The notes under the pieces were generated by a model. The model had not been told where the DNA came from. It saw only the letters and a program-made list of their open reading frames with translations, and did no database searches. Shown piece by piece: positions 13,952 through 63,246 of a DNA stretch of 64,000 nucleotides (positions within the stretch are counted from its first letter, which is position 1; every line of letters starts with the position of its first letter). The position numbers were made by a program, and so were the translations under genes. Origin of the DNA: a virus; the IMG/VR virus record IMGVR_UViG_3300044644_001125, positions 83,623 to 147,622 of that record; one strand, 5' to 3'.

Positions 13952-14245
13952 TTAATCGATGGTTCTAACTGCTCTGACGTATCCGTCACCGTAACTCTTA
14001 CCGTAGTAACTCTGAATCCCGATTGACATATGATTACTCCATGCGTTGACATCATTATACTCAGTAGATGACCAGTAGTAATCTTCCTCAAACTCATTTT
14101 CCGATTCATAAATCTGCGTTAGTTCGTCTGTGGTTGGTAAACGCCATCCTGTTTTCTCGTTGATATTAAGCGAAAAGCAGTATTGGCTGGCATCATACCA
14201 GTTGGCTTGAATCTCTGTTTCTTTTGGTGCGATTTCAATGTTCAT
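13952..14245 (-). CDS. DUF1566/Lcl C-terminal domain-like small protein
   Basis: MNIEIAPKETEIQANW..YCFSLNINEKTGWRLPTTDEL..YYWSSTEY..AW..YVRAVRTID. Confidence 0.65.
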   Translation of the reverse strand: MNIEIAPKETEIQANWYDASQYCFSLNINEKTGWRLPTTDELTQIYESENEFEEDYYWSSTEYNDVNAWSNHMSIGIQSYYGKSYGDGYVRAVRTID

Positions 14246-24269: not shown

Positions 24270-24569
24270 TCAACTTTCTCTAGGGGAGAAAGTCATCTTT
24301 TTTACTAATACCAACATCCTCTTTATGTTAGGTCTAGTAACAGATAAGGCAATCTGCACTGCATCGTCCTCTATCCACAAGTTAACATACGGATTATCGT
24401 AGTACATATCATTAACATCCGCTATAGTCAAAGGTCTCCAGTGTTCAGCTTGGGCGAATGCGTATAGCTTCGCTTCCGTGTATGTCAACGGTATTGGTGC
24501 TATATGGGTTGTTTCTTGAGTTTCTTGGGTCGCGAGCACCGATAGGTGCGAGCCATTGTCAGTTGACAT
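24270..24569 (-). CDS. hypothetical protein
   Basis: 99-aa ORF. Start overlaps stop of 24559-24846. Confidence 0.45.
   Translation of the reverse strand: MSTDNGSHLSVLATQETQETTHIAPIPLTYTEAKLYAFAQAEHWRPLTIADVNDMYYDNPYVNLWIEDDAVQIALSVTRPNIKRMLVLVKKMTFSPRES
24273..24302 (+). terminator. possible plus-strand terminator in intergenic region
   Basis: CTTTCTC-tagg-GAGAAAG followed after 5 nt by TTTTTT. Spacing makes it weak. Confidence 0.35.
24533..24555. repeat. GC-hairpin element (inside coding overlap region)
   Basis: gcgagcaccgataggtgcgagcc. Confidence 0.55.
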
Positions 24570-24846
24570 CTCGCACCGCCCGTATACTTGCTACCCTAGT
24601 CTTAACTATTCTACTAGTACTATTGTCACTGAAACTATGTGCTAACGCAAAGTTCTCCGCTTCATCCGAACTCCAGTAGTTAGATAGCGTAAAGTCGTTA
24701 TCTTGCTTGTATATGTCGATAAGTTCCGCTAACGTCGGCAATCTCCAGTTATCGTGCTCATTTACTCGCATACTCTTTATTATAAGGGTGGCCTCGTACC
24801 AATCTCCAAACATTTCAGCCTCCCTAGGTGATACTTCTATACTCAT
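24559..24846 (-). CDS. divergent DUF1566-like small protein
   Basis: MSIEVSPREAE..NWRLPTLAEL..YWSS..IRAVRDVN. Confidence 0.5.
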   Translation of the reverse strand: MSIEVSPREAEMFGDWYEATLIIKSMRVNEHDNWRLPTLAELIDIYKQDNDFTLSNYWSSDEAENFALAHSFSDNSTSRIVKTRVASIRAVRDVN

Positions 24847-25246: not shown

Positions 25247-25534
25247 TTAGAGGTCTCTGACTGCTCTTACATAGCCGTCATTGTTCTTACTGTATTGATA
25301 CTGGCAGCCATTACCGAAGTTCAGACCTGCTACTCGGAAGTCATCCCATACATCAGATGACCAGTAGTAGGCAGGAGCGAAATCGTTTTTTGATCTTCCT
25401 ATTATAATGAGTTCTTCCTCGGTAGGTAAACGCCATCCAGTTTTGTTGTTTGTATTGAGTGCGAAGCAGTAGAGTTTTGCATCTTCCCACGTGAGTTTTG
25501 CTACAGTTTCTTTAGGTGCTATTTCGAATTTCAT
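25247..25534 (-). CDS. DUF1566/Lcl C-terminal domain-like small protein
   Basis: MKFEIAPKET..LYCFALNTNNKTGWRLPTEEEL..YYWSS..YVRAVRDL. First of a tandem triplet; 4-nt overlap with the next gene. Confidence 0.65.
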   Translation of the reverse strand: MKFEIAPKETVAKLTWEDAKLYCFALNTNNKTGWRLPTEEELIIIGRSKNDFAPAYYWSSDVWDDFRVAGLNFGNGCQYQYSKNNDGYVRAVRDL

Positions 25535-25848
25535 GTTAAGTCTCTTACTGCACGCACGTAGCTGATGTAATTCTTGCCGTAGTTACTGAGCTGAACACCA
25601 TTCGATAAATTCTGACACCAGGCGTAGTTAGCATTGTACTCAGAAGACGACCAGTAGAAGGAATCAACAAAGTCCCAGTAGTAGGTACAGCCAAAGTCAT
25701 TTTTGTATTCATAGATATGATTTAATTCATCTTTAGTGGGTAATCGCCATCCAGTCTTACCATCGATATTAAGAGAAAAGCAGTAGAGCTTGGCATCAAA
25801 CCAATTGAGAAATGCCTCTGTTTCTTTTGGACTTATTTCGAATTTCAT
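25531..25848 (-). CDS. DUF1566-like small protein
   Basis: Same motif set. ATGA-type overlaps on both sides. Confidence 0.65.
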   Translation of the reverse strand: MKFEISPKETEAFLNWFDAKLYCFSLNIDGKTGWRLPTKDELNHIYEYKNDFGCTYYWDFVDSFYWSSSEYNANYAWCQNLSNGVQLSNYGKNYISYVRAVRDLT

Positions 25849-26138
25849 TGTAAATCCCTGATTGCTCTTACGTAGTTGTAGTCATAATCTTTAGCCCCAT
25901 CAAATTGACCACCAGTACCAAACGACTGAAACCATGCTTTTGAGCCATCGACCTCGGTAGAGGACCAATATCCCCATTTTTCAAAATCATGTTTTGTATC
26001 GAATATTTTATCTAGTTCTTCAAATGTTGGTAATCTCCAACCGGTTTTACCATTTATACGAAGAGCAAAGCAATACAACTTGGCATCATCCCAATTGGCT
26101 TGGATCTCTGTTTCCTTGGGTGCTATTTCGATGTTCAT
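25845..26138 (-). CDS. DUF1566-like small protein
   Basis: MNIEIAPKETEIQANW..GWRLPTFEEL..YVRAIRDLQ. Confidence 0.65.
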   Translation of the reverse strand: MNIEIAPKETEIQANWDDAKLYCFALRINGKTGWRLPTFEELDKIFDTKHDFEKWGYWSSTEVDGSKAWFQSFGTGGQFDGAKDYDYNYVRAIRDLQ

Positions 26139-27734: not shown

Positions 27735-27986
27735 TTAGGATGTCAAGTGTTTTTCATTATCTTTTAGATCTCTTACTGGTATGCAGGTTGCTGTATTATG
27801 ATCAAAGTAATTGCAATTTTGAAAAAGTACATTGTACCGGTCTGGTAGTTCAAAGACGTATTCTTTATCTGTCGGTAATCGCCATCCAATTTTACCATCA
27901 ATATTAAGTGAGAAGCAATAGACCAATGCTTCCGAGTAGGTTATTTCTTCTTTGTGATATTCTTCTGGTGCTATTTCGATGGCCAT
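27735..27986 (-). CDS. DUF1566-like small protein (short variant)
   Basis: MAIEIAPEEY..LVYCFSLNIDGKIGWRLPTDKEY..CIPVRDL. Confidence 0.55.
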   Translation of the reverse strand: MAIEIAPEEYHKEEITYSEALVYCFSLNIDGKIGWRLPTDKEYVFELPDRYNVLFQNCNYFDHNTATCIPVRDLKDNEKHLTS

Positions 27987-29612: not shown

Positions 29613-29858
29613 CTAATCGACATCTCGCACTGGATAGCAAAAGTACTTTACGGTATCCAGTTCCGAATCCATCAATGATGGTTTGTCTTCTTGCACCCAA
29701 CCAATAGACAGCACTGGTTTGCTATTGCTATCGCGGAAGTCTTTATACGATGGTATTCTCCAACCAATCTTACCATCGATGTTTAATGAAAAGCAATATA
29801 GTATTGATTCGTTCCACGTTATTTTTTTGTGGTATTCTTCTGGTGCTATTTCGATCAT
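29613..29858 (-). CDS. DUF1566-like small protein (short variant)
   Basis: MIEIAPEEYHKKITWNESILYCFSLNIDGKIGWRIPS..YPVRDVD. Confidence 0.55.
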   Translation of the reverse strand: MIEIAPEEYHKKITWNESILYCFSLNIDGKIGWRIPSYKDFRDSNSKPVLSIGWVQEDKPSLMDSELDTVKYFCYPVRDVD

Positions 29859-29912: not shown

Positions 29913-30719
29913 TCAACTTAAACTTGATTGATAATCAGTAAGATGTTGGTAGATTGATTTCAAGTATCTGCGGTATACTTTCTCGTAGCCTGGTTCTTGT
30001 CTATTCTTAAAATCAGAATAGGTAGTTGCTTGCTTTGGAATTTCTTTTAGGAATACAGTAATAGCAGTGGCTTGTTCAGCTACAGGTAACTTGTGTATCT
30101 TATTGATTAGATCCGATGCAGCTTCTTGTGCGTATGCTGCTATTTCATCAGGTTGAGATTTGTAGATTTCGTGTGCTCTTACTTTCTCTTCTTCTGATTT
30201 GAATTCATCTTGAATCAAGGCTGTAAAGAATTTGATTTTGTCTTTTTCAATATAGCCACGTTTGTATTTGTATCGTTGTCCGTGACTTACTTGCGTAGCA
30301 TGAGTAACTTCATGCAGGAATACTGAAGTCAAGTAACCAATGATAGTATCTAGTTCAGTAGAAACGTCAATCTTTTCTGTCAACTGTTTATATAGCAGTG
30401 TGATAAGTTTTGAAAGTACTTTAGGTGAAATAGTTATCGTGTTGGTGTCTTCGAGGTACTGGCCGGTTCCATTGGGTAGGGATTTAAACTGAATAGTAAC
30501 CTCACTGTTTGTTATTTGTTTTGCGTAATCTGTTAGAATAGGTTTGATCGCATTAACAAACGCAGTATTGTACTTGACCATAAACTGCATATCCATTTTC
30601 GCTGGCGGTTGCGTTGGCGTTTTGAATATCGTTGCAACAGCGGTGTGTAATGCTCGGTTAATCGTTGGTGTGTAGTTTGATAACGATATACGTTCACTTA
30701 AGATTTCTGCGATTCTCAT
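29913..30719 (-). CDS. hypothetical protein with HExxH motif (possible metallopeptidase-like), MRIAEIL N-terminus
   Basis: VFLHEVTHATQVSHG. 4-nt overlap with upstream gene. Confidence 0.55.
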   Translation of the reverse strand: MRIAEILSERISLSNYTPTINRALHTAVATIFKTPTQPPAKMDMQFMVKYNTAFVNAIKPILTDYAKQITNSEVTIQFKSLPNGTGQYLEDTNTITISPKVLSKLITLLYKQLTEKIDVSTELDTIIGYLTSVFLHEVTHATQVSHGQRYKYKRGYIEKDKIKFFTALIQDEFKSEEEKVRAHEIYKSQPDEIAAYAQEAASDLINKIHKLPVAEQATAITVFLKEIPKQATTYSDFKNRQEPGYEKVYRRYLKSIYQHLTDYQSSLS

Positions 30720-31528
30720 ACTGATGCCTTTCTTGTAAGGATGAAGCTATCACCGTAGGTTTCGATATTCCAAGTATTAGAAAAGAACTTGTTAAGGATT
30801 TTAGAATAGACTGCGAATCTACGATTTTGTCTAACGTGTACGCCTTCTGGTGAGTAACTAGTGATCACTGACATGAATCGTTCTAGTTGTTTGAAGGCTT
30901 CGTTCATCTCTGGATATTTGCTGAGTTTCATGTCAGCAGCTTTGCGTATTTGCCAGTATAGTTTATCAAACTCACTTGAACTATATTTTTCAACTGGCTG
31001 GGTAAGATATTGTTTGATTGCCTCGATTGTTTCTAATACCAGGTTGTACTTATTCTTTCTAATCTCATCTTCTTCAGTTTTTAGTAACTCGTTTGTCACT
31101 GAACTTAAACCTTGCAATGATGCGAGTAATTCTCTTTTAGGTCTTTCTACTGGTATATTGAATTTGTGTTTGGTATCACTAGGAGTTGAATGCGCAGAGA
31201 AAGTGCACCGGTCGATTTTGGCTTTGTCGAGATAGGTTTTAACGATGTAGCCAACCCCAGATAGAATATCAAAATCATTATCAATATCTTTTCCTTCAGT
31301 CGATGCGGTATCATACATTGTACCATTAACATAGAAAACAACATCGGTTGTTTTCTCATCGCCATCGGTTGTTGTTTTGAATTGAATGTCTACTTGATTA
31401 CCTTTGTTTGTGGTAAAAGTACGTTGTGCTATTTTGTTCTTAGAACCTTGCATACCGGCTTTTGATACAGTTGAACTTTTAACTGTAGTTAAAGGTTTCT
31501 TTGGTTCTAGTAGTTCGTGAATTCGCAT
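30716..31528 (-). CDS. hypothetical protein (MRIHELL N-terminus)
   Basis: 270-aa ORF. Confidence 0.55.
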   Translation of the reverse strand: MRIHELLEPKKPLTTVKSSTVSKAGMQGSKNKIAQRTFTTNKGNQVDIQFKTTTDGDEKTTDVVFYVNGTMYDTASTEGKDIDNDFDILSGVGYIVKTYLDKAKIDRCTFSAHSTPSDTKHKFNIPVERPKRELLASLQGLSSVTNELLKTEEDEIRKNKYNLVLETIEAIKQYLTQPVEKYSSSEFDKLYWQIRKAADMKLSKYPEMNEAFKQLERFMSVITSYSPEGVHVRQNRRFAVYSKILNKFFSNTWNIETYGDSFILTRKASV

Positions 31529-31589
31529 TGGATAATGTCCTCTTTTGGTATTGAAGTATTTATGGAGGACATTATCTTTTAGGTTGTGG

Positions 31590-32378
31590 TTACTTCGACA
31601 TCGAGAACATAGTCATGTCGTGGGGGATAAGAATAGTTTGAACTTTTCCATCTCTTACTGCTTCAGCAATAGTTACCTGAGCAGTTGCTAACATATAGTC
31701 AATAGCACCTTTATTCGCATTTAACACTGCAATTCGTTCTGCTTCTTGTTTAGCAGTTTGTACTTCAATCTCTTTTTGTTTGTATGCGTTTTTAGCACGA
31801 ACTAGAGAGTTTGCAGAATCTACCACCGTATCAGCTGGAGTAATACTACGTACTAGAACTTGGCTAATAGTCAAAGCAGTATCTAATTTTTCATCCCTTA
31901 AGGTTTGAACAATAGTATCTTTGACTTCTTGTTCGATGGCTTGTCTTGCATCACTCATGTCCAACGCATCATACTTTCTTGCCGACTTGTAAACTGCATT
32001 ACGTGCGGCTGCTGTGATGTAATTGTACATTAGATACGTATCACCATGAGTGTCAGTGGTATTGAATGAACGATTCTTAGTTGAGTAAAGTTCAGCCACT
32101 GAATCTGGATTAACATTGTAGATGACTACAAGATCAAAGTCTTTCATGGTTGAGTTGTCTTTTGCTACTGGCGTTAAATCATCAATTGAAACACCAACAT
32201 CCTTGACTGGGATAGTAATCACATCACCAAGTAGAACTTGATTGAATGAGCCTGGTTGTAACTCATCAAGTTCAACTTGTTTGGATACATTGACACGAAC
32301 ACCTCGATGCCCAGATTCGATACGTGTACAACCAGTGGCTAAGATAGTTGCGAGTAATACTAATAGTAGTTTGTTCAT
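31590..32378 (-). CDS. SPFH/band-7-like lipoprotein
   Basis: Start at MNKLLLVLLATILATGC (lipobox). C-terminal region with coiled AERIAVLNANKGAIDY segment typical of SPFH proteins. Confidence 0.55.
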   Translation of the reverse strand: MNKLLLVLLATILATGCTRIESGHRGVRVNVSKQVELDELQPGSFNQVLLGDVITIPVKDVGVSIDDLTPVAKDNSTMKDFDLVVIYNVNPDSVAELYSTKNRSFNTTDTHGDTYLMYNYITAAARNAVYKSARKYDALDMSDARQAIEQEVKDTIVQTLRDEKLDTALTISQVLVRSITPADTVVDSANSLVRAKNAYKQKEIEVQTAKQEAERIAVLNANKGAIDYMLATAQVTIAEAVRDGKVQTILIPHDMTMFSMSK

Positions 32379-32561
32379 TTTGTTTTCCTTAGAATAAGAA
32401 TACAACTGTCATAAGAACAGTAATGGTTAAAATTGCGCATTGTGCTACCAATGCGAGTAGATATTTTGCAAGTTTGATCTGATCATCAGTCATTTGCCTT
32501 AATACTAAAGTACCCAAGAAAAATGCGATGAATACAATTAAGAATATTAACGTGGTTTTGA

Positions 32562-32870
32562 TCATGTTAGATCCTTAGAAGATAATATCAGTTGTTGAAT
32601 AGCTTTGCCAAACTCTTCTTTAGTTTGTGGTAGCGGAATACTTTCACCAGAACTGTTAGCCCAACGATCAAAATGTTCCAATGGACAAGAAACTTGGAAT
32701 CTGAGTTCTCCGTTTTCTGGTACCAAGAAACGCCATCTGCGATCATTGCCAATAAAGTAAGGTGGGTACTTTGAGAATATCTGTCTCCATAATTTTGATT
32801 TTCTCGTACCTTCTGGTTTTAAACCGTTTGAATTAAGCCAGCGTTTAAAGTCTCTGTGAAGTTTTTGCAT
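32562..32870 (-). CDS. hypothetical basic protein
   Basis: 102-aa ORF. Confidence 0.5.
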   Translation of the reverse strand: MQKLHRDFKRWLNSNGLKPEGTRKSKLWRQIFSKYPPYFIGNDRRWRFLVPENGELRFQVSCPLEHFDRWANSSGESIPLPQTKEEFGKAIQQLILSSKDLT

Positions 32871-32928
32871 GTTGTACTCCTGTGTTAAGTTAAGAGTATT
32901 ATACCTGTAGTTGACTGGATGTCAACTA

Positions 32929-33165
32929 CTATTCGTCGAGGTCGTCCATGTATTCCATGTCTTGCTGAATCATATCGTACATACTACTGTAGCAGGTTGG
33001 ACAAAATGCAACTGGAAGTATTCCAAAGTATCCTTGAATTCCGCCCTCGTCATCCGAAAATTCGCAAGAACAAACATTGCAAATATGGTCGGTACCTATA
33101 TGTGAAAATTGTTCAATCATGTGTAACTCCATTGTGTTCATTGTTAAGGAGTGGTTATTATACAT
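32929..33165 (-). CDS. Cys-rich zinc-ribbon small protein
   Basis: CNVCSCEF...CPTCYSS. Confidence 0.45.
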   Translation of the reverse strand: MYNNHSLTMNTMELHMIEQFSHIGTDHICNVCSCEFSDDEGGIQGYFGILPVAFCPTCYSSMYDMIQQDMEYMDDLDE

Positions 33166-33228
33166 AAGGGCGACTGGATGTCAAGAGTTTTTGGTGTGGA
33201 TATAACGAGAACAGGGGGCTCACCTACT

Positions 33229-33453
33229 TCAATCATCTTTTAGATCTCTTACTGGCGTTACGTACCACTTACCCTTACCAGAAGTTCTTCCAATGCACCA
33301 GCACATAGAATTGGTAATTCCCTTAGTATTCATGTATTCGTCGATGGTTGGTAATCTCCAACCGATTTTACCATCGATGATTAACGAAAAGCAATACATC
33401 AATGCTTCCTCATACGTCATTTCGAATTTTGTTCGTTCACCTATTTCAATCAT
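33229..33453 (-). CDS. DUF1566-like small protein
   Basis: MIEIGERTKF..MYCFSLIIDGKIGWRLPTIDEY..YVTPVRDLKDD. In a tandem quartet with 4-8 nt overlaps. Confidence 0.6.
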   Translation of the reverse strand: MIEIGERTKFEMTYEEALMYCFSLIIDGKIGWRLPTIDEYMNTKGITNSMCWCIGRTSGKGKWYVTPVRDLKDD

Positions 33454-33694
33454 CTTTTAGATCTCTTACTGGAGTAACATACCACACAATATTCGCTGTA
33501 GGTCTACCAACGTACCACGAGCCGTATATATACTTATTGCCGTAATATTCCTCTTGCGTTGGCAATCTCCAACCTATCTTACCATCAATATTAAGTGAGA
33601 AGCAATACATAACGGCTTCTTCATGCGACAGTTCGACTTCTGTTCTTATGGCTACTTCAATCATTTCAAATCTCTTACTGGAGTTACGTACCAT
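33446..33694 (-). CDS. DUF1566-like small protein
   Basis: Same motif set; coupled to neighbours. Confidence 0.6.
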   Translation of the reverse strand: MVRNSSKRFEMIEVAIRTEVELSHEEAVMYCFSLNIDGKIGWRLPTQEEYYGNKYIYGSWYVGRPTANIVWYVTPVRDLKDD

Positions 33695-33870
33695 TTAAGA
33701 CCCATATTTCTACTAAGATGCCAAGACTCGGTAATCTTCGAATTCTGCATGTATTCGTTACTTGTTGGCATTCTCCAACCAATCTTACCATCTACGTTTA
33801 ATGAAAAGCAATACATCCTTGCTTCGTCGTATGTCATTAGAAATTTAGTTCGTTCACCTATTTCAATCAT
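33661..33870 (-). CDS. DUF1566-like small protein
   Basis: Same motif set. Confidence 0.6.
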   Translation of the reverse strand: MIEIGERTKFLMTYDEARMYCFSLNVDGKIGWRMPTSNEYMQNSKITESWHLSRNMGLKWYVTPVRDLK

Positions 33871-34100
33871 CGCAAATCCCTCACTGGCGTAACTCGTCGT
33901 GGAAAAGTACTATCACTTGCCAACTTGTTTTCGTACCATCCGGCAATAGGTGGAATGATTTCCCATTCATCGTAGCTTGGTAATCTCCAACCAATCTTAC
34001 AATCATAAGATAAGGTAAAGCAATACAGTTTTGCTTCGGAATATGACATGGCGGATTCTGACAGTGGTGCTAGTTCAATCCCAAATTCTTCAATTATCAT
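33867..34100 (-). CDS. DUF1566-like small protein
   Basis: LYCFTLSYDCKIGWRLPSYDEW..RVTPVRDLR. Confidence 0.6.
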   Translation of the reverse strand: MIIEEFGIELAPLSESAMSYSEAKLYCFTLSYDCKIGWRLPSYDEWEIIPPIAGWYENKLASDSTFPRRVTPVRDLR

Positions 34101-34104
34101 AGCT

Positions 34105-34473
34105 TCACCACTTCAATGCAGTTTTTAATTCAAATTCTTTGTATGCGATATCAGCAATTGGAATTTCATATCGCATGGCTTTTGCTGCTATAACTGCTAA
34201 GTCTCCATTGCAAGAAATAAACTTAAACAACTTGTCTTCACACTCATAGAAGATATCAGCATCTTGTAGTTTCTCTAGGGTAGAAGTATGAATCAAGTAT
34301 TTCAAACAGTTGTTACCAAACTCATATTCTAGTTTGCCAATGATTTTGTTTGGTACAAGTTTATGAACTACGCCTTTGTTTGTTTCTAGTGTTAATAGTT
34401 TTACAGTATCGAATTCCACATGGGTTCTTTGTACTGTATACCAATCGTGATAATGCCATTTGTTTTCTGCCAT
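34105..34473 (-). CDS. hypothetical protein
   Basis: 122-aa ORF. Confidence 0.5.
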   Translation of the reverse strand: MAENKWHYHDWYTVQRTHVEFDTVKLLTLETNKGVVHKLVPNKIIGKLEYEFGNNCLKYLIHTSTLEKLQDADIFYECEDKLFKFISCNGDLAVIAAKAMRYEIPIADIAYKEFELKTALKW

Positions 34474-34520
34474 TTGATTTTCCTTTGGTTATTTTCTAAA
34501 AGATAATAGCTTACTTTGGT

Positions 34521-34748
34521 TTAATTGTCAATGCTTCGTACTGGGATAATTGTATGCGTTTCTGTAGTCCAATTGTCATTGATGTCTTCATCATACCAAT
34601 AACCGTCTTCATTTGTCATTATAACAAGCGACGTCAGGCATTCTTCACATGTGGGTAATCTCCAACCATCACCTAAACAAAAACAATACAAGACTGCTTC
34701 TGTGATGGTACCCTCTTTCCACAATACTCTAGGTGCTATTTCAATCAT
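34521..34748 (-). CDS. DUF1566-like small protein (degenerate)
   Basis: MIEIAPRVLWKEG..LYCFCLGDGWRLPTCEEC..IIPVRSIDN. Confidence 0.55.
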   Translation of the reverse strand: MIEIAPRVLWKEGTITEAVLYCFCLGDGWRLPTCEECLTSLVIMTNEDGYWYDEDINDNWTTETHTIIPVRSIDN

Positions 34749-34965
34749 CTTTTAGATCTCGTACTGGGGCAAGCAACCAGTTACCTTTACTGGGTCTGGG
34801 TCTACCAATATACCAACAACCCATTAATTGATCGTTACCATACCATTCATCTTTGGTTGGTAATCTCCATCCAGTCTTACCATCTATATTCAACAAAAAG
34901 CAATACATAATTGCTTCCTCGTAAGATAGTCTTAATTCACGGTCAATTGGTGCTATCTCAATCAT
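34741..34965 (-). CDS. DUF1566-like small protein
   Basis: Start moved to MIEIAPIDREL; the longer six-frame ORF lacks family features upstream. Confidence 0.55.
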   Translation of the reverse strand: MIEIAPIDRELRLSYEEAIMYCFLLNIDGKTGWRLPTKDEWYGNDQLMGCWYIGRPRPSKGNWLLAPVRDLKDD

Positions 34966-35203
34966 CGTCAGGTACCTCGCGAACAGGTTGTAAAAAGTAA
35001 ACGTCATCAGGATTGTACCACTGTTTACGGTCAACGTACAACCAATCACGGTCAACGTACCACCAATCACTGTACATTTCGTATAGTAAGCATTCATCCA
35101 AGGTTGGAAAACGCCAACCATCAGCTAGGCAAAACAGGTAGAATTTTGCATCTTCGTAAGTTACTCTTGTTGTGGTTGGCTTACCCATTTCTAATCTAAT
35201 CAT
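34958..35203 (-). CDS. DUF1566-like small protein
   Basis: Start moved to MIRLEMGKPTT. FYLFCLADGWRFPTLDEC..LQPVREVPDDD. Confidence 0.5.
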   Translation of the reverse strand: MIRLEMGKPTTTRVTYEDAKFYLFCLADGWRFPTLDECLLYEMYSDWWYVDRDWLYVDRKQWYNPDDVYFLQPVREVPDDD

Positions 35204-35399
35204 CTTTAATATCTCGCACTGGTCTAACAAAAAACGTACTAACTTGTGAGATTCTATCAACATACCAAGAACCTTGCAATTCATACTCAATGTATTCGGC
35301 TTCAGTTGGCAATCTCCAACCATCACCCAAGCAAAAACAATATAAGATTGCCTCGTCATACGTGATTCGTTTGTTATAGTACTTCCCAATCTCAATCAT
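35196..35399 (-). CDS. DUF1566-like small protein
   Basis: MIEIGKYYNKRITYDEAILYCFCLGDGWRLPTEAEY..VRPVRDIKDD. Confidence 0.55.
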   Translation of the reverse strand: MIEIGKYYNKRITYDEAILYCFCLGDGWRLPTEAEYIEYELQGSWYVDRISQVSTFFVRPVRDIKDD

Positions 35400-35634
35400 C
35401 GTCAACATCTCTCACTGGTACAAGTGGGCATAACCCAACACTATGAATCGAGTCTTCAGCAACCCAGGCATGTATTATGGTTGGCGATTCACCGTGGATA
35501 ACAGCCATGATGTTGTTAAGTTCACGTCTAGTCGGTAGTCGCCATCCAATATCTAATTTTAATAGATGCAATTCTGCATCGGATCGTGATATATTATGGG
35601 TTGGGCGTAATTCTATTGGCGATACTTCTATCAT
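35392..35634 (-). CDS. DUF1566-like small protein (divergent)
   Basis: MIEVSPIEL..LHLLKLDIGWRLPTRREL..LVPVRDVDDD. Confidence 0.5.
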   Translation of the reverse strand: MIEVSPIELRPTHNISRSDAELHLLKLDIGWRLPTRRELNNIMAVIHGESPTIIHAWVAEDSIHSVGLCPLVPVRDVDDD

Positions 35635-35684
35635 TGGTAGCCCTCGGTTGGTGGCTTACTAAACCTTAATAAGCCACCAGGTTA

Positions 35685-35915
35685 TTAAAGGTTAGGTAAT
35701 ACCCAGTTGTTAATGATGAGTAATATCCCACCAAGAATCAACAATGGTCCTAAAACCAATCTTGTAACATAACCACAGATTTCACTATCAACCACAGGTT
35801 CTTCTGATTGAACTTCTGGTTTGATACGATTTTTGTTTGATTCTTTTAAAGCCATGATTGTCTCCGTTTGTAATTTAGAAAGGGCTATTCTATCGAACAA
35901 TCTATCGGTTGTCAA
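35685..35915 (-). CDS. small membrane protein
   Basis: C-terminal hydrophobic helix. Confidence 0.45.
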   Translation of the reverse strand: MTTDRLFDRIALSKLQTETIMALKESNKNRIKPEVQSEEPVVDSEICGYVTRLVLGPLLILGGILLIINNWVLPNL

Positions 35916-35966
35916 CTACAAAACAGCACCTAAATATAACTAATCTTACCACAAAGGAAACCAAAC

Positions 35967-36191
35967 ATGAGAGCAGCAGAGTTTATGCGAACCCTGGCGG
36001 ATTTAATCGACCAGCTAGAAAACAAAACCGATGATACTAAATCATCTGAATCAGAAACACCAATGGATTCTGGTGATATAATGGTACCACCTCTACAGCA
36101 AAAGATCGAGTTGATGAAAAAGATGACAAACTCGGATGATGATAACTTTAATACAGCAGCGGCTGAAGAAGACGAACCATTCGAAGGATAA
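35967..36191 (+). CDS. hypothetical acidic protein
   Basis: AAAGGAAACCAAAC-ATG SD. Immediately precedes the tail fibre gene. Confidence 0.45.
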   Translation: MRAAEFMRTLADLIDQLENKTDDTKSSESETPMDSGDIMVPPLQQKIELMKKMTNSDDDNFNTAAAEEDEPFEG

Positions 36192-36193
36192 CA

Positions 36194-38158
36194 ATGGGTT
36201 TTACTCAAGACTTTCTTACTAGTAGAAGAAACAACGACGATGGTAGTACCAGAATCGGTGAACATGATCGCCTCTGGTATTCGAGCTCAGACAACACCAT
36301 CAGGATTGGTGACAATGTTACGCCTGGTGGTATTATTGTCTGTGGTGGCGGTACAGGTGATGGAATTTATGTATTACCAACTGCCAGTACTACCGTAAAA
36401 GGTGGTGTTAAAATTGACGGAACTTCTATCACAATCAATAACGAAGTTATTAGTGGATTTGATGGTAACTACAATTCGTTGTCTAACAAACCAGTTCTGT
36501 TTAGTGGTAACTATAATGATCTAACGAATAAACCAGTTTTATTCAGTGGGTCATATAACGACTTAACTAATAAGCCTACCATCCCAGCAGCACAGGTTCA
36601 ATCGGATTGGTTGGCAACAAGTGGCGTTGCCGAAATCCTAAACAAACCAGCTATACCAGATATCACCGGTATAACAGAAGTGTTTGCGGCAACCGGTGAA
36701 CCAATGGGCCATGCCGACAAAACCCATTCGTTGATTTCATTTGATGATGCAAGTAGAACTTTCACTATATCACCGGTGAATAGTTCATTTGATATCTGGG
36801 TAAAAGGAACTAAGTGGGTAATCACCAACTCAAGATCAGTAACTATACCAGATAATACTGGCCTGTATTACATTTATTTTGATGCCACTGGTACGTTGCA
36901 TTATAAAACAACGTTCTTTGATTGGCCAAATGATTGTATGACAGCTTATGTTTATTGGAATAAACTAACCGGTAAAGCGCCATACGTTGCAGATGAAAGA
37001 CATGGTATAACCTTAGATTGGCAAACCCATGAATACCTGCACAGAACACGTGGTGCAGCAATTGCAAGTGGTTTCACTGCCTCCAATTTTATAATAAACG
37101 GTGATGGTTCTCTCAATTCACATCTTCAATTAGATATAGAATCTGGTACGTTCTTTGATGAAGATTTACAAGTTGATGTTATTAGTACCAATACACCAGT
37201 AGCAAATTCTTGGCAACAAGACTTAGCTGGCCCTGCACGAATACCAATGTTCTATATTAACAGTGGCGGTGGTTGGGTAATGGATCCAGCTACTGACTTT
37301 CCAGTAAAACAAGGTTTGTTACCAAAGTATAACTTGTATAGCGGTGGTAACTGGACTACACCTGATATCGATAATAACAAGTTTGGTGTTAGTTTCATCT
37401 TAGCAACCAATAACATCAATTATCCTGTTATTGGAATTATTGGTCAATCATCGCATGCCAACCAAGGCGATGCAGAAGCAGTTAATTTCACTGATTTGTC
37501 ATTACCCGGATTCCCAGTTGTAGAATTAAGACAGCTATATAAACTGGTATTCCAATGCAAAACAAGTTATACCAATACGGTACATGCTAGACTTACATCG
37601 ATATTTGACTTAAGAAGTTTTAGTAGCACAACATCGGCAATGGCTACTTATACCGATCATGGATCTTTAAGTGGATTACTAGATGATGATCATCCGCAAT
37701 ATCTACTAAGAACCGATGTGAGTGCACTTAATGGTCCCGCATTTAGTGTGTATCGAGATGCAGTGCAAACCATACCAACTGATGTGTTAACCGCAATGAC
37801 TTGGACTGTCGAAGAGTACGATACCCATAACTGCGTAACATCAACTAGATTCACACCAACCGTTGCAGGTTACTATGCCCTTGTTGCTACTGTTAGAATT
37901 GATGGTGGTATCGGTACAGGTGAACGTATGATTTGTATTAAGAAAAATGGTACAGAATATCGACGAGGTATGAACTCTAAAGGTACTGCTAGTGTTGGAG
38001 ATAGTTGGTTTCAACTAGATATTTCATGCCAAGTACATGCTAATGGTACTGGTGATTACTTTGAAGTGTTTGTTCAACAGGGTGCTGGTGCTGATAGAAA
38101 TACGACAAGTGGACAACCATTCACTGCATTCCAAGGATGCATGTTGCGTGCTGCATAG
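36194..38158 (+). CDS. tail fibre / receptor-binding protein
   Basis: N-terminal repeats S(G/N)YNDLTNKP(V/T). Tail-fibre signature LLDDDHPQYLLRTD near C-terminal domain. AAGGATAACA-ATG SD. Confidence 0.7.
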   Translation: MGFTQDFLTSRRNNDDGSTRIGEHDRLWYSSSDNTIRIGDNVTPGGIIVCGGGTGDGIYVLPTASTTVKGGVKIDGTSITINNEVISGFDGNYNSLSNKPVLFSGNYNDLTNKPVLFSGSYNDLTNKPTIPAAQVQSDWLATSGVAEILNKPAIPDITGITEVFAATGEPMGHADKTHSLISFDDASRTFTISPVNSSFDIWVKGTKWVITNSRSVTIPDNTGLYYIYFDATGTLHYKTTFFDWPNDCMTAYVYWNKLTGKAPYVADERHGITLDWQTHEYLHRTRGAAIASGFTASNFIINGDGSLNSHLQLDIESGTFFDEDLQVDVISTNTPVANSWQQDLAGPARIPMFYINSGGGWVMDPATDFPVKQGLLPKYNLYSGGNWTTPDIDNNKFGVSFILATNNINYPVIGIIGQSSHANQGDAEAVNFTDLSLPGFPVVELRQLYKLVFQCKTSYTNTVHARLTSIFDLRSFSSTTSAMATYTDHGSLSGLLDDDHPQYLLRTDVSALNGPAFSVYRDAVQTIPTDVLTAMTWTVEEYDTHNCVTSTRFTPTVAGYYALVATVRIDGGIGTGERMICIKKNGTEYRRGMNSKGTASVGDSWFQLDISCQVHANGTGDYFEVFVQQGAGADRNTTSGQPFTAFQGCMLRAA

Positions 38159-38194
38159 GACTAAAAGATAATTGAAGTTAGTTTCGATTATCTT

Positions 38195-38527
38195 TTAGCA
38201 ATCCCGCACTGGTCTAACTAGGGTAGTATTCACGTATTTGTCATCCCAAGTGGTGTGCATGTCAACCAGCAGTGGCATCGCAAGCCACGCACATCCTGAG
38301 TAATCAACATGCTCCTCGCTGGACCAGTATCTAGGATACTTCCGATAATTCATTGTCTGGGTATGTTCCGAAGTGATTAACCCTCTTGACCCAAGCCAAT
38401 GCAATTCTCGCATCGTTGGTAATCTCCAACCAACCTTTCCATCGATGTTCAACGAAAAACAATACAAACGGGCTTCATCCCATGCGAGTGCTTTGATGTA
38501 TTCTAATGGTGCAAGTTCTATGTTCAT
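38195..38527 (-). CDS. DUF1566-like protein (long variant)
   Basis: Start moved to MNIELAPLEY. LYCFSLNIDGKVGWRLPTMREL..LVRPVRDC. Confidence 0.55.
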   Translation of the reverse strand: MNIELAPLEYIKALAWDEARLYCFSLNIDGKVGWRLPTMRELHWLGSRGLITSEHTQTMNYRKYPRYWSSEEHVDYSGCAWLAMPLLVDMHTTWDDKYVNTTLVRPVRDC

Positions 38528-38556
38528 TGGATAAATATTAATAAAAGGAAAAGACA

Positions 38557-38832: not shown

Positions 38833-39360
38833 TTAGACATTCCTAACCGGAATAGTAACCCTGTTACTATCTAAATCCTCGAAGTCATATTCATCATCTT
38901 CGAATCCATAAGTGGTAACAGGCCCATCACTTGGCATTTCATAGGGACGAGAACCATACACGTGATTCTCCTCGTCGTAGAATGGTTCAGTAGATGTATA
39001 CACCCAGTTTTCTTGTTTCAATGCTGTTAGTAAATTGGGTTCTGCTTGTTTACGAATAATCTCGCATTCATAAACAGTTGGTAATCGCCATCCAATCTTA
39101 CCATCGATATTCAAAGAAAAGCAATACAACTTTGCATGCTCAAAAAGAAAGTCTTGACTCCAATAATCCCTCGGTGAAATCTCAAGTTTAGCATAATCCA
39201 ACTCGTCAGCTTTGTTATGTAACGCAATAGCAAATTCACGTGCAGTTGCTGTATCAACCTCACCAACTGATGCCCAACTAATGGTAGATGGATTTACTGT
39301 TTCAAAATCAACAGAAGATATGTACGGTTCAGAAACCGTTATCAATTTTTTAACGTTCAT
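38833..39360 (-). CDS. two-domain protein with C-terminal DUF1566-like domain
   Basis: C-terminal LYCFSLNIDGKIGWRLPTVYECE...IPVRNV. N-terminal 80 aa unrelated. Confidence 0.55.
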   Translation of the reverse strand: MNVKKLITVSEPYISSVDFETVNPSTISWASVGEVDTATAREFAIALHNKADELDYAKLEISPRDYWSQDFLFEHAKLYCFSLNIDGKIGWRLPTVYECEIIRKQAEPNLLTALKQENWVYTSTEPFYDEENHVYGSRPYEMPSDGPVTTYGFEDDEYDFEDLDSNRVTIPVRNV

Positions 39361-39752: not shown

Positions 39753-39998
39753 TTAAGGATTGTCAATAGTTCTTACTGCTCTGACTGACAAGTTCTGATC
39801 AACCAAGTAATCGTCATCAGATGACCAATACCAAGCCCAGTGCGAAGATTCGGAATTTTTAGAAAGTTCTTTAAGCTCGTCACTTGTTGGTAATCTCCAA
39901 CCTATCTTACCATCAACACTAAGAGAAAAGCAATACAATTTTGCAGCATCTAATGAATTAGTGAATGTTTCGGTTTCGATTGGTGACAACTCAATCAT
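39753..39998 (-). CDS. DUF1566-like small protein
   Basis: MIELSPIETE..LYCFSLSVDGKIGWRLPTSDEL..YWSS..VRAVRTIDNP. Confidence 0.6.
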   Translation of the reverse strand: MIELSPIETETFTNSLDAAKLYCFSLSVDGKIGWRLPTSDELKELSKNSESSHWAWYWSSDDDYLVDQNLSVRAVRTIDNP

Positions 39999-40282
39999 AG
40001 CGTTCTGACTGGTCTAGCCTGCGAAAGCATTGTGGGTAAGTGCTCTATTGTAGTGACTCCACCGTATTGGATATGGAAGATGCAACCATGATTGTTGTCT
40101 TTTGCATTGATCCAGCATGAGCCTGGAACTTCAATATCCATTCGTCCTAGTTCTTGCATTTCAGATATAGTAGGTAAACGCCATCCAGTTTTACCGTCGA
40201 TGTTTAATGAAAAACAATATACAATTGCTTCATCAATAGTTAAGGTCTTTTCGTATTCAGGTGGTGATAATTCAAAGTGCAT
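39995..40282 (-). CDS. DUF1566-like small protein
   Basis: MHFELSPPEY..VYCFSLNIDGKTGWRLPTISEM..ARPVRTL. Confidence 0.6.
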   Translation of the reverse strand: MHFELSPPEYEKTLTIDEAIVYCFSLNIDGKTGWRLPTISEMQELGRMDIEVPGSCWINAKDNNHGCIFHIQYGGVTTIEHLPTMLSQARPVRTL

Positions 40283-47266: not shown

Positions 47267-47491
47267 CTATTTAACTGGTTTGTAAAAGGCTAAGAAATAC
47301 AAGATGACTAAGATCGAATCGTTAAACAGAAAGAATTTCAAATCAGCTTCAAAAGTTTCAATTTCTTTTAGATATTCGTCAACTATTATTGCTGCAGATA
47401 GGGCAAACATTAAGGGTACTCCTACATCTGCTATTCGTTTGTGCATGGCTTTTCTCCTAGGTATACTAGTATATATCTCGCACTGGTACAA
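47267..47491 (-). CDS. small membrane protein
   Basis: 74 aa with two hydrophobic segments. Confidence 0.4.
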   Translation of the reverse strand: MYQCEIYTSIPRRKAMHKRIADVGVPLMFALSAAIIVDEYLKEIETFEADLKFFLFNDSILVILYFLAFYKPVK

Positions 47492-47759
47492 TACTATAAT
47501 GCAATTTTAATTTCTCGCCATCACCCAGTTCCAGGTATCCAGATCTTATGTCAACTATACCAGTATCACAGATGTACCAAAAGTCTAAGTATGCAAACGT
47601 CGAAACTCCATGGACTTTTCCACGTATCGAAAATAATTCCGCATAAGTAGGAAATCTCCAGCCTACTTGATCGTTTATAACAAGTGAGAAACAATACAAC
47701 TTTGCTTCATTTATGGTCAAATCTTTCCAGTATTCGATTGGTGCTATTTGTATAGTCAT
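47466..47759 (-). CDS. DUF1566-like small protein
   Basis: MTIQIAPIEY..LYCFSLVINDQVGWRFPTYAEL..IVPVRDIY. Confidence 0.55.
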   Translation of the reverse strand: MTIQIAPIEYWKDLTINEAKLYCFSLVINDQVGWRFPTYAELFSIRGKVHGVSTFAYLDFWYICDTGIVDIRSGYLELGDGEKLKLHYSIVPVRDIY

Positions 47760-60585: not shown

Positions 60586-60812
60586 TATTCTACACGTTTG
60601 TAGATAGTAACATCCAATTCTGCATCCCATGTATAGATATGATGATTGTAGTTACTGTCTACTAACTCGATTTTATCGTCTTTTTCTATAATCTGAATTA
60701 GTTTCAGAGTGGATAGTCCAATCATAACAGTGATCTCAAACGCTTTAGGTACTGAGTAGATAGTATCGTAGGTTAAGATTTCTTTGAGTAAACTGAGTTT
60801 AATATTTTGCAT
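60570..60812 (-). CDS. hypothetical protein
   Basis: 80-aa ORF. Confidence 0.45.
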   Translation of the reverse strand: MQNIKLSLLKEILTYDTIYSVPKAFEITVMIGLSTLKLIQIIEKDDKIELVDSNYNHHIYTWDAELDVTIYKRVEYYIGE

Positions 60813-61153
60813 AATAGTTTCCTTGTTGTTGAGTATTTACCGATATCACGAACTGGTCTGACCGGATAGACCCGATCAGGTTTCCATCCTAGTTCAGCAT
60901 TAGAGTAATGCATTATTATCACATTCCCGTAAAACAAACCAGCTGCGCCAATTTCTTCGAAGGTAGGCAATCTCCAACCTGTTTTACCATCGATGTTCAA
61001 CGAAAAACAATACATGATTGCTTCATCATGAGTAACTTGGATTTGATATTCGAGTGGTGCTACTTCAAAATCCAGTAACAGGAAATCAAGATGATAGCCT
61101 GTAAACCACCATCGGTTATCAAAATCTTGTAATCGTTTTAAATACTTGTTCAT
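60773..61153 (-). CDS. DUF1566-like protein with N-terminal extension
   Basis: Start at MNKYLKRL. MYCFSLNIDGKTGWRLPTFEEI..VYPVRPVRDI. Confidence 0.55.
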   Translation of the reverse strand: MNKYLKRLQDFDNRWWFTGYHLDFLLLDFEVAPLEYQIQVTHDEAIMYCFSLNIDGKTGWRLPTFEEIGAAGLFYGNVIIMHYSNAELGWKPDRVYPVRPVRDIGKYSTTRKLLCKILNSVYSKKS

Positions 61154-61223
61154 GGTTAGTTCCATTATCTTTTAGGTTACTGGCTAAATACCTTTATATT
61201 AACATATTATAGGTGACAAATAC

Positions 61224-63009: not shown

Positions 63010-63246
63010 CTAGGTACCCATTTCTCTTACTGGCCAACACAGCCTATTAAACGCATCGTGATCAGATTCGCAGTAAGCTAAACACCACATACTATCATTA
63101 GTTTGCTTATACAACTCACCTAACTCAACAATCGTTGGTAACCGCCAACCAGTCTTACCATCAATATTCAAAGAAAAACAATAGAGTTTAGCATCACTGT
63201 ACGACATTACCTGTTGATATTCAGTTGGCGTGGGTTCTAGTTTCAT
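63010..63246 (-). CDS. DUF1566-like small protein
   Basis: MKLEPTPTEY..LYCFSLNIDGKTGWRLPTIVEL..CWPVREMGT. Confidence 0.55.
   Translation of the reverse strand: MKLEPTPTEYQQVMSYSDAKLYCFSLNIDGKTGWRLPTIVELGELYKQTNDSMWCLAYCESDHDAFNRLCWPVREMGT

Follow-up and report, generated by a model that had tools for sequence, protein, structure and literature searches.

Lcl of Legionella pneumophila is a secreted, surface-bound trimeric adhesin with a collagen-like stalk and a basic GAG-binding face, and its C-terminal domain (Lcl-CTD, PDB 8q4e) belongs to the Lcl_C or DUF1566 family (PF07603). The C-type-lectin fold, and DUF1566 specifically, is known among the targets of diversity-generating retroelements (DGRs); in the DGR proteins TvpA of Treponema and Mtd of a Bordetella phage, which share the fold superfamily, a stable frame tolerates a hypervariable segment, in the case of Mtd in a phage context. 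In freshwater Bacteroidota (for example L051 Sediminibacterium, L036 Polaribacter and L032 Saprospiraceae), genes for small secreted or lipoprotein Lcl_C proteins, each with a single domain of about 100 aa, also lie head to tail in arrays; the closest cellular homologues of the genes described here come from Bacteroidota MAGs, and these arrays are their closest cellular relatives (40–48% identity). A virus-borne CTLD reduced to about 80 residues occurs in poxvirus A33/A35 (OPG161); the virus is a eukaryotic one, and its A33 is a membrane glycoprotein that forms a disulfide-bonded dimer. Expansion of a small domain to tens of copies has been described in jumbo phages, as with the about 35 zinc-ribbon copies of Bacillus phage G (Iyer et al., 2021; PMC7824862), and the family reported here is a phenomenon of the same kind in a different fold.

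We analysed a 64-kb stretch of DNA (hereafter the window) from a large uncultivated freshwater phage whose genome, according to cluster metadata for three window proteins rather than contig sequence, is probably about 327 kb (327,256 bp). We built a family HMM from 18 members and ran it over every stop-to-stop segment of the window in all six frames; it retrieved 23 strong members (E about 1e-34 to 7e-12) and one marginal member (24270–24569, E 5e-4), the best non-member segment reaching E 0.13. All 24 are minus-strand segments and coincide with the places to which an earlier note on this DNA had assigned about 24 DUF1566/Lcl-like paralogs, and together they amount to 6.6 kb, or 10% of the window. 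Member sizes are 67–175 aa, a wider range than the 70–130 aa given in that note, and the interval that it had flagged (33229–35634) does hold two arrays but also an unrelated gene. Judged from their sequences, the paralogs are stand-alone, signal-less, C-type-lectin-like (Lcl_C/DUF1566) miniproteins. The features are as follows, L108–L111 being strain relatives of the phage.

33219..33236, minus strand: relic cassette start ATGATTGAAGTAGGTGAG (MIEVGE), not followed by a domain; overlaps the last array stop; repeat family D17
33229..33453, minus strand: mini-form paralog g33229, 74 aa, last of the 4-gene array; ATG in the ATGATTGA overlap with the stop of upstream g33446
33446..33664, minus strand: mini-form paralog g33446, 72 aa; joined to the upstream gene by an ATGA overlap; missing from L108–L111
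33661..33870, minus strand: mini-form paralog g33661, 69 aa; forms the closest in-window pair with g33229 (72% aa identity); missing from the strain relatives
33867..34100, minus strand: mini-form paralog g33867, 77 aa, first of the 4-gene array; 100% aa identity to the L108 ortholog
34105..34473, minus strand: unrelated 122-aa gene that separates the two arrays and shares their predicted operon; without a match in Pfam, PHROG or NCBIfam; conserved in the strain relatives
34521..34748, minus strand: mini-form paralog g34521, 75 aa, LGDGW variant; whole unit missing from L108–L111
34741..34965, minus strand: mini-form paralog g34741, 74 aa; family HMM
34958..35203, minus strand: mini-form paralog g34958, 81 aa (MIRLEMGK...), most divergent of its array; HMM E 7e-12; start read directly
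35196..35399, minus strand: mini-form paralog g35196, 67 aa; family HMM
35392..35634, minus strand: mini-form paralog g35392, 80 aa, first of the 5-gene array; ortholog frameshifted in L108 and L110
35685–35855 (entry 35685..35915), minus strand: gene for a 56-aa hydrophobic protein, predicted operon start for both arrays; predicted sigma70-like promoter TTGACA-17-TAGAAT at 35915–35887
13952..14245, minus strand: long-form paralog g13952, 97 aa; Lcl_C 44.5 bits; conserved sigma70 promoter/5'UTR cassette upstream
24270..24569, minus strand: marginal degenerate member, 99 aa (WRPLT); HMM E 5e-4 only
24559..24846, minus strand: long-form paralog, 95 aa; promoter at 24901–24873
25247..26138, minus strand: three-gene long-form array (95, 105 and 97 aa; 25247, 25531 and 25845) with 4-nt overlaps
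27735..27986, minus strand: intermediate-length paralog, 83 aa; perfect TTGACA-16-TATAAT promoter upstream
29613..29858, minus strand: intermediate-length paralog, 81 aa; family HMM
38195..38527, minus strand: long-form paralog, 110 aa; family HMM
38833..39360, minus strand: paralog g38833, 175 aa; extended N-terminally by 57 aa and carrying an acidic insert of 74 aa; family HMM
39753..40282, minus strand: two-gene array (95 and 81 aa; 39753 and 39995); family HMM
47466..47759, minus strand: long-form paralog, 97 aa; family HMM
60773..61165, minus strand: paralog with N- and C-terminal extensions, 130 aa; family HMM
63010..63246, minus strand: intermediate-length paralog, 78 aa; family HMM

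Scanned individually, the long forms 13952 and 25531 (49.5 bits) passed the PF07603 gathering threshold of 34.9 bits, and 20 of the 24 members matched Lcl_C in Pfam at E<=0.1 (best E 2.5e-15), in agreement with the DUF1566/Lcl_C homology proposed earlier; a PDB profile search matched Lcl-CTD at E 7.5e-10. In the flagged arrays, the mini forms reach 15–18 bits against Lcl_C, which on their own leaves them below the threshold; it is the window HMM that links them to the family (E 1e-18 to 1e-29; 7e-12 for g34958). Membership of the Fibrobacter major paralogous (FISUMP) family, which had also been suggested, was not borne out: the best score against TIGR02145 was 16.9 bits (cutoff 41.65), from one member over the last 45 profile positions only, and PF09603 matched one of the 24 members at E 0.014. 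PHROG matches were to phrog_4245 and phrog_16004, both families of unknown function. The designed beta-propellers that headed the PDB profile matches of the 24-member alignment and the giant multi-repeat proteins that topped an exhaustive HMM search were set aside as spurious, both being caused by the DGxxGW motif.

The shared motifs described in the earlier note were recovered in the 24-member alignment, in which a W and an R are invariant and E3, A17, Y20, F22, L24, G31, P35, T36, E39, W52, V68 and R69 are at least 90% conserved. The glutamate six residues past the invariant R, itself at least 90% conserved, completes an R...E salt-bridge pattern, and the matching positions in Lcl are the intradomain salt-bridge/core residues W315, R338 and E344 (PMC11162425). 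The phage proteins thus keep the conserved W, the R...E salt bridge of WRLPTxxE and the terminal VRxVR strand of Lcl-CTD. As had been proposed, this conserved frame encloses a variable middle: median pairwise identity falls from 53% in the N-terminal module to 17% between WRLPT and (P/A)VR, a stretch 26 to 74 aa long.

Two structural grades are present, full domains of 95–110 aa and mini domains of 67–83 aa. In the AF2 models, which are confident for both the long form (pLDDT 91.5) and the mini form (90.4), mini domains retain both helices together with the first and last strands, the WRLPTxxE salt-bridge motif and a single Trp, and a short hypervariable loop appears to replace the second beta-sheet. 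Judged from these models, the flagged arrays are of a truncated 'mini' grade without the canonical ligand-binding half, which the earlier note had missed. Both query structures, which are AF2 predictions, match the fold of the solved Lcl-CTD. The mini-form model matches CTLDs only, including the truncated poxvirus A33/A35, with which there is no sequence relationship (10–13% identity). The Ca2+-dependent C-type lectin motifs EPN/QPD and WND occur as a pair in no member (g38833 has a single chance EPN), and the conserved disulfide pairs of C-type lectins are absent, there being one widely conserved Cys (YCF) and several members with none or one; in both respects the phage proteins resemble Lcl-CTD, which has neither conserved disulfides nor Ca2+/carbohydrate motifs. 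Lectin activity can therefore not be assumed from the shared fold. The family alignment contains no conserved set of pocket residues beyond the core motifs. The idea that the variable loop would serve as the binding site is drawn by analogy, and the mini form, in which the CTLD half that normally binds ligand is missing, speaks against it.

None of the 24 members has a hydrophobic segment, signal peptide or TM helix. The phage proteins begin at the first strand of the domain, whereas most of the closest bacterial homologues inspected, like most copies in the Bacteroidota arrays, have a signal-peptide- or lipoprotein-like N-terminus (20–60 residues in the arrays). Their pI is mostly 4–5.4, so that they are mostly acidic, and most members lie among small accessory genes. 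Most members or arrays have TTGACA-N16/17-TAnAAT 35–60 nt upstream; these predicted promoters rest on consensus matches, as the window-wide count of promoter-like sites was not above that of shuffles. Three members have only a ATTATCTTTTAG motif near the start codon and no sigma70-type promoter. Taken together, the lack of signal peptides and TM helices, the acidic character, the sigma70-type promoters and the accessory-gene setting make early action inside the infected cell most likely. We infer that the proteins most likely form a diversified set of binders that serves host takeover or counter-defence in the cytoplasm, in which the variable loop of each module would recognise a different host target, whether a defence or takeover target or a small ligand. 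Such a panel, of the kind suggested in the earlier note, would also fit the cassette turnover and the raised pN/pS seen between strains. With modest confidence, we regard a birth-and-death family of Lcl_C miniproteins acting as an intracellular binder panel as the best explanation of the whole.

It seems fairly unlikely that the proteins act instead outside the cytoplasm, as lectin-type adhesin modules on the virion or exchangeable receptor-binding tips of tail fibres, or as receptor masks released at lysis onto cells and debris. Such a role would suit the characterised relatives, all of them extracellular adhesins (Lcl, the Bd2740 fibre tip, the BACOVA_04982 fimbrial protein, invasin and intimin), and the partial NCBIfam matches, which are to the adhesins Lcl, FimD and Lsa25. 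It would also suit phrog_4245, where the domain is C-terminal in a 583-position profile of fibre-like look, the presence in the window of a PAAR gene and of further genes that may be structural, and the members with only a non-sigma70 motif upstream. Set against this, the proteins start at the first domain strand and have neither a signal peptide or anchor nor a domain for trimerisation or docking, the genes are dispersed among small accessory genes behind sigma70-type promoters rather than grouped in a structural module, and the usual ligand-binding sheet is missing from the mini forms. A secreted-lectin reading was rejected on the lack of a leader peptide.

The gene junctions were read base by base, and agree with the translationally coupled tandem arrays that the earlier note had described. 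There are five 8-nt stop/start overlaps, four with ATGATTGA and one with ATGATTAG (at 35203/35196), as well as two 4-nt ATGA overlaps and one 10-nt gap; the Bacteroidota arrays, in contrast, have ordinary intergenic spacers. The sequence said to encode a shared LKDD and stop does so as CTAAAAGATGAT at 33232, 33449 and 34744, but CTAAAAGATRAT proved not to be family-specific, with 62 occurrences in the window, chiefly in intergenic DNA, against 0.03 expected. Each unit is self-contained: its conserved C-terminal codons (PVR-D/E ... KDD-stop) hold an SD-like GAGG/GAGA and overlap the ATG-ATT-GAA of the next gene. Since the conserved unit ends carry both an SD-like site and the next ATG, a duplicated unit would at once be translationally coupled to its neighbours, and the same cassette ends may supply homology for unequal recombination. 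The family is best read as a birth-and-death multigene family, with whole units gained, lost, fused or frameshifted from strain to strain, a turnover that is partly shown and partly inferred.

Median aa identity among the paralogs is 37%, and between paralogs dS is at least 0.68, which is saturated, with dN/dS of 0.15–0.31. Simple recent duplication was therefore rejected, in keeping with the divergence noted earlier. Most paralogs have closer relatives in other contigs than in the window (for example 82% versus 54% and 79% versus 40%). The strain relatives L108–L111 are syntenic at about 90–93% nucleotide identity. They lack g34521, the junction being chimeric inside PVR, and both g33661 and g33446; a 73-aa gene of L109 joins the body of g34741 to the PVRSIDN tail of g34521, and L108 and L110 carry the frameshifted g35392 ortholog. 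Between g35196 and its L109 ortholog there are 7 aa changes (8 non-synonymous by Nei-Gojobori) and 1 synonymous change. For the array orthologs (nd 20, sd 8), pN/pS is about 0.65 compared with an omega of 0.10–0.12 in neighbouring genes, a contrast that is based on 28 substitutions, owes part of its size to the recombinant tail of g34741 and by itself cannot be told from neutrality. Several paralogs hardly vary between strains (100% identity for g33867 and g39995), which fits ordinary purifying selection.

Some of these observations would be expected of a self-propagating cassette whose coupled stop/start makes duplication cheap, most copies being redundant or decaying and without individual functions: the unit-length indels, the relic start MIEVGE, the frameshifted copy, the marginal degenerate member and the near-neutral pN/pS of the 5-gene array all point that way. 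We nevertheless consider this unlikely, given the paralog dN/dS values at saturated dS, the individual paralogs with their own orthologs at 79–90% identity in other phages, the hundreds of related clusters kept across large phage contigs and the confident modelled fold. A more far-reaching version of the binder-panel reading, which we rate as rather unlikely, is a heritable, germ-line 'antibody-like' repertoire of large freshwater phages that is shuffled by recombination. The paralogs, acting in the cytoplasm, would each have their own host immune protein or signal to neutralise, the cassettes gained and lost between strains would follow the defences present in local hosts, and in the mini form a binding scaffold of about 70 residues would represent a new minimum.

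None of the six phage members compared with PADLOC-DB defence models gave a match. Some other bacterial homologues carry the domain beyond a single TM helix, after a TIR or Ser/Thr-kinase domain, and these fused relatives match the PADLOC ThsB-like and PD-T4-6-like models via their other domains. A decoy for bacterial TIR–Lcl_C proteins was rejected because in those proteins the predicted place of the domain is on the outer side of the membrane. Another proposal likens the paralogs to the small proteins with which phages soak up defence signals: they would sequester small molecules (immune signalling nucleotides, nucleotide-sugars or lipid-linked glycans) rather than bind proteins. The small, acidic, single-domain, abundant-type proteins, their lectin-type fold, the fusions to a ThsB-like TIR domain and the possibility of DUF1566 trimers with an internal cavity raised in the Lcl paper (PMC11162425) are compatible with such a sponge, which we judge quite improbable: in the fusions the domain is extracytoplasmic, no conserved pocket residue set exists past the core motifs, and 24 deeply divergent paralogs exceed the need for a few conserved ligands.

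In contrast to Mtd and TvpA, diversity here is germ-line paralogy (old duplicates and length variation) and not RT-driven adenine mutagenesis, and the variable stretch, located ahead of the last strand, differs in length among members. The DGR link made in the earlier note, under which the paralogs would be DGR variable proteins or relics with a template repeat and RT elsewhere in the genome, draws on the fold and on the window being 64 kb of probably 327 kb, and is highly improbable: none of 20 window ORFs submitted to Pfam (94–654 aa) matched an RT family, no RVT domain lies near the arrays in L002, L003 or L108, no template-like near-identical repeat occurs in the window (top family repeat 79% identity over 148 nt), mismatches between the closest paralogs have an A-fraction of 0.22–0.40 in both directions where a DGR would bring it near 1 in a single direction, and DGRs do not make the large length changes seen.

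Compared with Lcl, with its secreted trimeric architecture and basic face, this phage has about 24 divergent copies, half of them truncated to 67–83 aa. Similar arrays and fusions of 2–3 domains occur on other metagenomic contigs, of 256, 272, 306 and 372 kb. Among 50,697 GenBank phage records no such expansion was found (tblastn of two long forms gave 4–5 weak single-copy matches), nor did the flagged region match GenBank phages by megablast. Nearly all of the best 120 database matches have no Pfam annotation for the mini form. The literature found on DUF1566, PF07603, Lcl_C or lectins together with jumbo phages comprised DGR surveys, the Lcl structure paper and a jumbo-phage survey, with no characterised inhibitor or sponge homologue. 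Bacteroidota promoters differ from TTGACA/TATAAT and GGAG leaders, and the presence of such promoters and leaders in the window argues against a Bacteroidota host. That jumbo-phage survey, which covered 224 cultured jumbo phages, explicitly reported none with 'FGS domains', its name for the C-type-lectin-fold domain diversified by error-prone RTs (PMC7824862). The lack of a GenBank counterpart, the result of that survey and the mostly unannotated mini form together suggest an unrecognised, apparently widespread gene family of large environmental phages.

A module known from bacterial surface adhesins is thus found here without export signals, miniaturised, occupying about 10% of a 64-kb stretch and arranged in self-coupling cassettes that turn over between strains. 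Even if the binder-panel reading were false, the family would still cleanly illustrate that gene-family expansion can be driven by overlapping stop/start junctions. If it is true, the family would offer a way into the question of how huge phages deal with varied host defences, and a very small, naturally diversified binding scaffold.

The family of about 24 small paralogs proposed in the earlier note proved to be a real feature of this DNA. The ORF listing for 33000-36000 contained nine small minus-strand ORFs with the expected motifs and one unrelated 122-aa ORF, and a regular-expression search located 22 WRLPT-like sites in the window, exclusively on the minus strand. When a family HMM built from 18 members was run over all the window's six-frame segments, 23 of them were recovered at E values of 6e-34 to 7e-12, together with a marginal segment at 24270-24569 (E 5e-4); beyond these 24 members, the next-best segment had an E value of 0.13. 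The coordinates agree with those proposed, and the family accounts for 6.6 kb, or 10%, of the window. In the alignment of the 24 members, W and R are invariant, and conservation reaches 90% or more at E3, A17, Y20, F22, L24, G31, P35, T36, E39, W52, V68 and R69.

Long forms scored 44.5 and 49.5 bits against Pfam Lcl_C (PF07603; cutoff 34.9 bits) and 20 of the 24 members matched this model at E≤0.1, in agreement with the suggested DUF1566 assignment; the mini forms, those of the arrays at 33229-34100 and 34521-35634, reached only 15-18 bits. In NCBIfam, three adhesins (Lcl, FimD and Lsa25) were matched in part, at their C-terminal ends. The additional label of Fibrobacter major paralogous domain (FISUMP) had to be dropped, since TIGR02145 yielded just 16.9 bits against a cutoff of 41.65 bits. 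[quoted passage not shown] Neither the motif pair EPN/QPD plus WND nor conserved disulfide pairs occur in any member, and the same is reported for the Lcl domain itself (PMC11162425). Confident AlphaFold2 models, with pLDDT of 91.5 for the long form 25531-25848 and 90.4 for the mini form 33229-33453, bear out a conserved fold and predict two structural grades. In these models, the mini form retains strand 1, both helices, the Trp-containing loop and the last strand, and is without the second sheet, which in the long form has three to four strands.

Members carry no export signal: a hydrophobic segment is absent from every one, and the pI lies between 4.0 and 6.0 in 22 of 24. The closest cellular homologues belong mostly to freshwater Bacteroidota MAGs, and most of those inspected have a signal-peptide- or lipoprotein-like N-terminus; in others, the order is a TIR (ThsB-like) or Ser/Thr-kinase (PD-T4-6-like) domain, one TM helix and then Lcl_C. 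Unless the proteins are packaged or set free at lysis, this difference in leader and TM segments suggests that what is an extracytoplasmic module in bacteria has become cytoplasmic in the phage. We tentatively propose early cytoplasmic expression of a diversified binder panel that would act against host targets, a reading of function that we place somewhat short of likely. Its foremost rival is that the proteins are extracellular or virion-bound adhesin modules, as the adhesin matches would allow and the missing export signals disfavour. A second is that they serve as small-molecule sponges.

The TIR fusions were seen in Flavobacteriaceae genomes or MAGs (L080, L082, L088, L089, L092, L094, L097 and L103; four of the eight loci scanned) as proteins of ~480-540 aa, laid out as ThsB-like TIR, single TM helix and C-terminal Lcl_C. 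Locus L090 encodes a PD-T4-6-like Ser/Thr kinase-TM-Lcl_C protein. In such fusions, Lcl_C may be the extracytoplasmic sensor of defence-type effectors.

Between 33150 and 35950, the minus strand reads in the order promoter, 56-aa gene, hairpin, five family genes, 122-aa gene and four family genes.

35915-35887, minus strand: σ70-like promoter TTGACA-17-TAGAAT (sequence pattern)
Between this promoter and the hairpin, minus strand: gene for a 56-aa hydrophobic protein (read in the sequence)
34521-35634, minus strand: five family genes of 80, 67, 81, 74 and 75 aa, in minus-strand order
Between the two arrays, minus strand: 122-aa gene, unknown family
33229-34100, minus strand: four family genes of 77, 69, 72 and 74 aa, in minus-strand order

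As claimed previously, these arrays are translationally coupled through short overlaps. At five junctions, one of which is ATGATTAG, GAT GAT TGA overlaps ATG ATT GAx by 8 nt, and at two others the overlap is a 4-nt ATGA. The conserved C-terminal PVR(D/E) codons contain a Shine-Dalgarno-like GAGG or GAGA 10-14 nt ahead of the next ATG, and therefore each unit supplies a ribosome-binding signal for the following unit. Beyond the last array stop, at 33236-33219, an extra ATGATTGAAGTAGGTGAG (MIEVGE) with no domain behind it is the relic of a lost unit.

Strain-level relatives (L108-L111), which share ~90-93% identity with the window and are syntenic with it over 27756-44872, differ from it by whole units. 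They lack g34521 (paralogs are named by their lower coordinate), and the neighbouring gene there ends in its PVRSIDN tail, so that the breakpoint must lie within the conserved PVR codons. Also missing are g33661 and g33446, and two independent assemblies show a frameshift in the g35392 ortholog. We infer that units come and go by unequal recombination at their conserved ends. Comparison of the window with L109 yields 20 non-synonymous and 8 synonymous differences in the array genes (pN/pS 0.65, from small counts to which the recombinant tail contributes), and the neighbouring genes have omega values of 0.10-0.12.

One of these relatives, L108, differs elsewhere too. A 1.5-kb segment (40376-41879) absent from the otherwise collinear L108 is probably a mobile insertion; its plus-strand ORF 40515-41822 (435 aa) has no Pfam match. 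Just beyond the g27735 ortholog, L108 (JGI 3300046011, contig Ga0485186_0000587) carries at 15245-19738 a type I-F-variant CRISPR-Cas system with Cas6f/Csy4, Cas7fv, Cas5fv and Cas3; its repeats (GTAGACTGCCGCATACGCAGCTTTGAAG, 60-nt period) form two arrays, one of 10 copies and one of 9. The corresponding position in the window is taken up by a 138-aa ORF and a GIY-YIG gene, and the window lacks this repeat. A 138-aa ORF at 27270-27686 contains three tandem 66-nt repeats at 27294-27512 (75-78 nt period); the encoded protein is thus internally repetitive, and it has no convincing match in Pfam.

Pairwise identity among the paralogs is 19-72% (median 37%), with a median of 53% in the N-terminal module and 17% in a middle stretch of 26-74 aa. 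Even the closest pairs have dS of at least 0.68 and dN/dS of 0.15-0.31; they are therefore old, selected duplicates, and the middle is diversified as the earlier note supposed. Most paralogs have a nearer relative on other contigs than in the window (82% versus 54% for g25247, 79% versus 40% for g34958 and 86% versus 62% for g34741), indicating individually maintained lineages. Two- and three-domain fusions are present on other contigs (for example, protein P0015 and contig L011). A third rival sees the genes as largely redundant by-products of a self-coupling cassette; the junction design and the turnover of whole units lend themselves to it, and the age and selection of the duplicates speak against it. 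Least likely are targets of a diversity-generating retroelement, at which the earlier note had hinted: in the 64-kb window, repeats that include family members do not exceed 79% identity, paralog mismatches show no adenine bias and none of the 20 ORFs submitted matched a reverse-transcriptase family in Pfam, nor is a reverse transcriptase annotated near the arrays in three other contigs.

Turning to expression signals, a TTGACA-N16/17-TAnAAT site lies 35-60 nt upstream of most members or arrays, these being pattern matches and not evidence of timing, and g27735 has a perfect-consensus promoter. g13952 stands behind a conserved promoter/leader cassette, found ahead of almost all small genes in the first 17.5 kb. 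On the minus strand of 1-17700, there are ~19-24 copies of this ~75-nt intergenic cassette (for example, 8515-8589, 13836-13910 and 14250-14321), comprising TTGACA-N17-TAtAcT/TAGAAT, a hairpin spanning the -10 box and a leader that hardly varies, CCTTAACAAAGCACTACGGAGTAAAgacc-ATG; together, the copies resemble a set of strong early promoters of host type with a common 5'UTR. The 12-mer CTAAAAGATRAT occurs 62 times in the window on both strands (0.03 expected; 47 intergenic by script count), often in inverted pairs on either side of a -35 or -10 box. Examples are 6321-6332(+)/6349-6360(-), 29868(+)/29895(-) and 38161(+)/38187(-), with four tandem copies at 50432-50543. Its ATTATCTTTTAG form lies 8-10 nt before the start codons of g25845, g27735, g29613 and 21745 and 12 nt before tRNA-Met, and three CTAAAAGATRAT copies fall where array genes meet at LKDD-stop junctions. 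The 12-mer probably acts as a promoter or operator specific to the phage. A conserved hairpin motif, GCTCGTGCCTATCGGCACTCGCA, has six intergenic copies (9270, 13907, 16674, 21118, 25157 and 42202), with related hairpins upstream of 40282, 47759 and 63458; it recurs on four other family-bearing contigs (L002, L006, L019 and L020) and, on the gene strand, no T-run comes after it.

A 327,256-bp JGI contig is the recorded source of three of the window's proteins, and further family members, at least P0046, P0084 and P0092, appear to be located beyond the window. Several samples from JGI, ENA and Logan contain identical fragments, one with the B570J prefix, which we take to denote Lake Mendota. The window also contains the following.

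42355-43110: caspase-like peptidase
49184-52323 and 56960-57265: GroES (Cpn10) homologue, PAAR protein, and MoxR-type AAA ATPase next to a DUF2201 metallopeptidase/VWA protein
53024-54307, plus strand: TnpB-like gene with Cas12f1-like TNB domain
61496-62239: class-3 lipase
In the window: tRNA-Met
In the window: GT4 glycosyltransferase; HNH and GIY-YIG genes

The DUF2201/VWA protein with MoxR, GroES and PAAR are accessory genes typical of very large phages, and the best relatives of the DUF2201 protein are in jumbo phages such as PA5oct. A copy of the TnpB-like gene with 81% nucleotide identity lies on the IMG/VR contig L020, which is otherwise unrelated to the window; this suggests that a transposon passes from phage to phage.

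Comparable arrays were found on other very large contigs (256.5, 271.7, 306 and 372 kb), whose fetched stretches have almost no other gene in common with the window. The mini-form profile retrieved 957 clusters at 90% identity, nearly all of 59-104 aa, and among the top 120 just 2 are annotated with a Pfam family. An exhaustive HMM scan with a cutoff of E≤1e-3 returned 2,603 representatives, of which 353 reached E≤1e-10; its very long multi-repeat matches were set aside as motif-level noise. No expansion of the family was found among 50,697 GenBank phage records, and a 2021 survey of jumbo phages reported no FGS (C-type-lectin-fold) domains in them (PMC7824862). Overall, we hold the descriptive and evolutionary part of our reading with high confidence. 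The adhesin domain itself is known; what is new is its architecture, its location and its number of copies.
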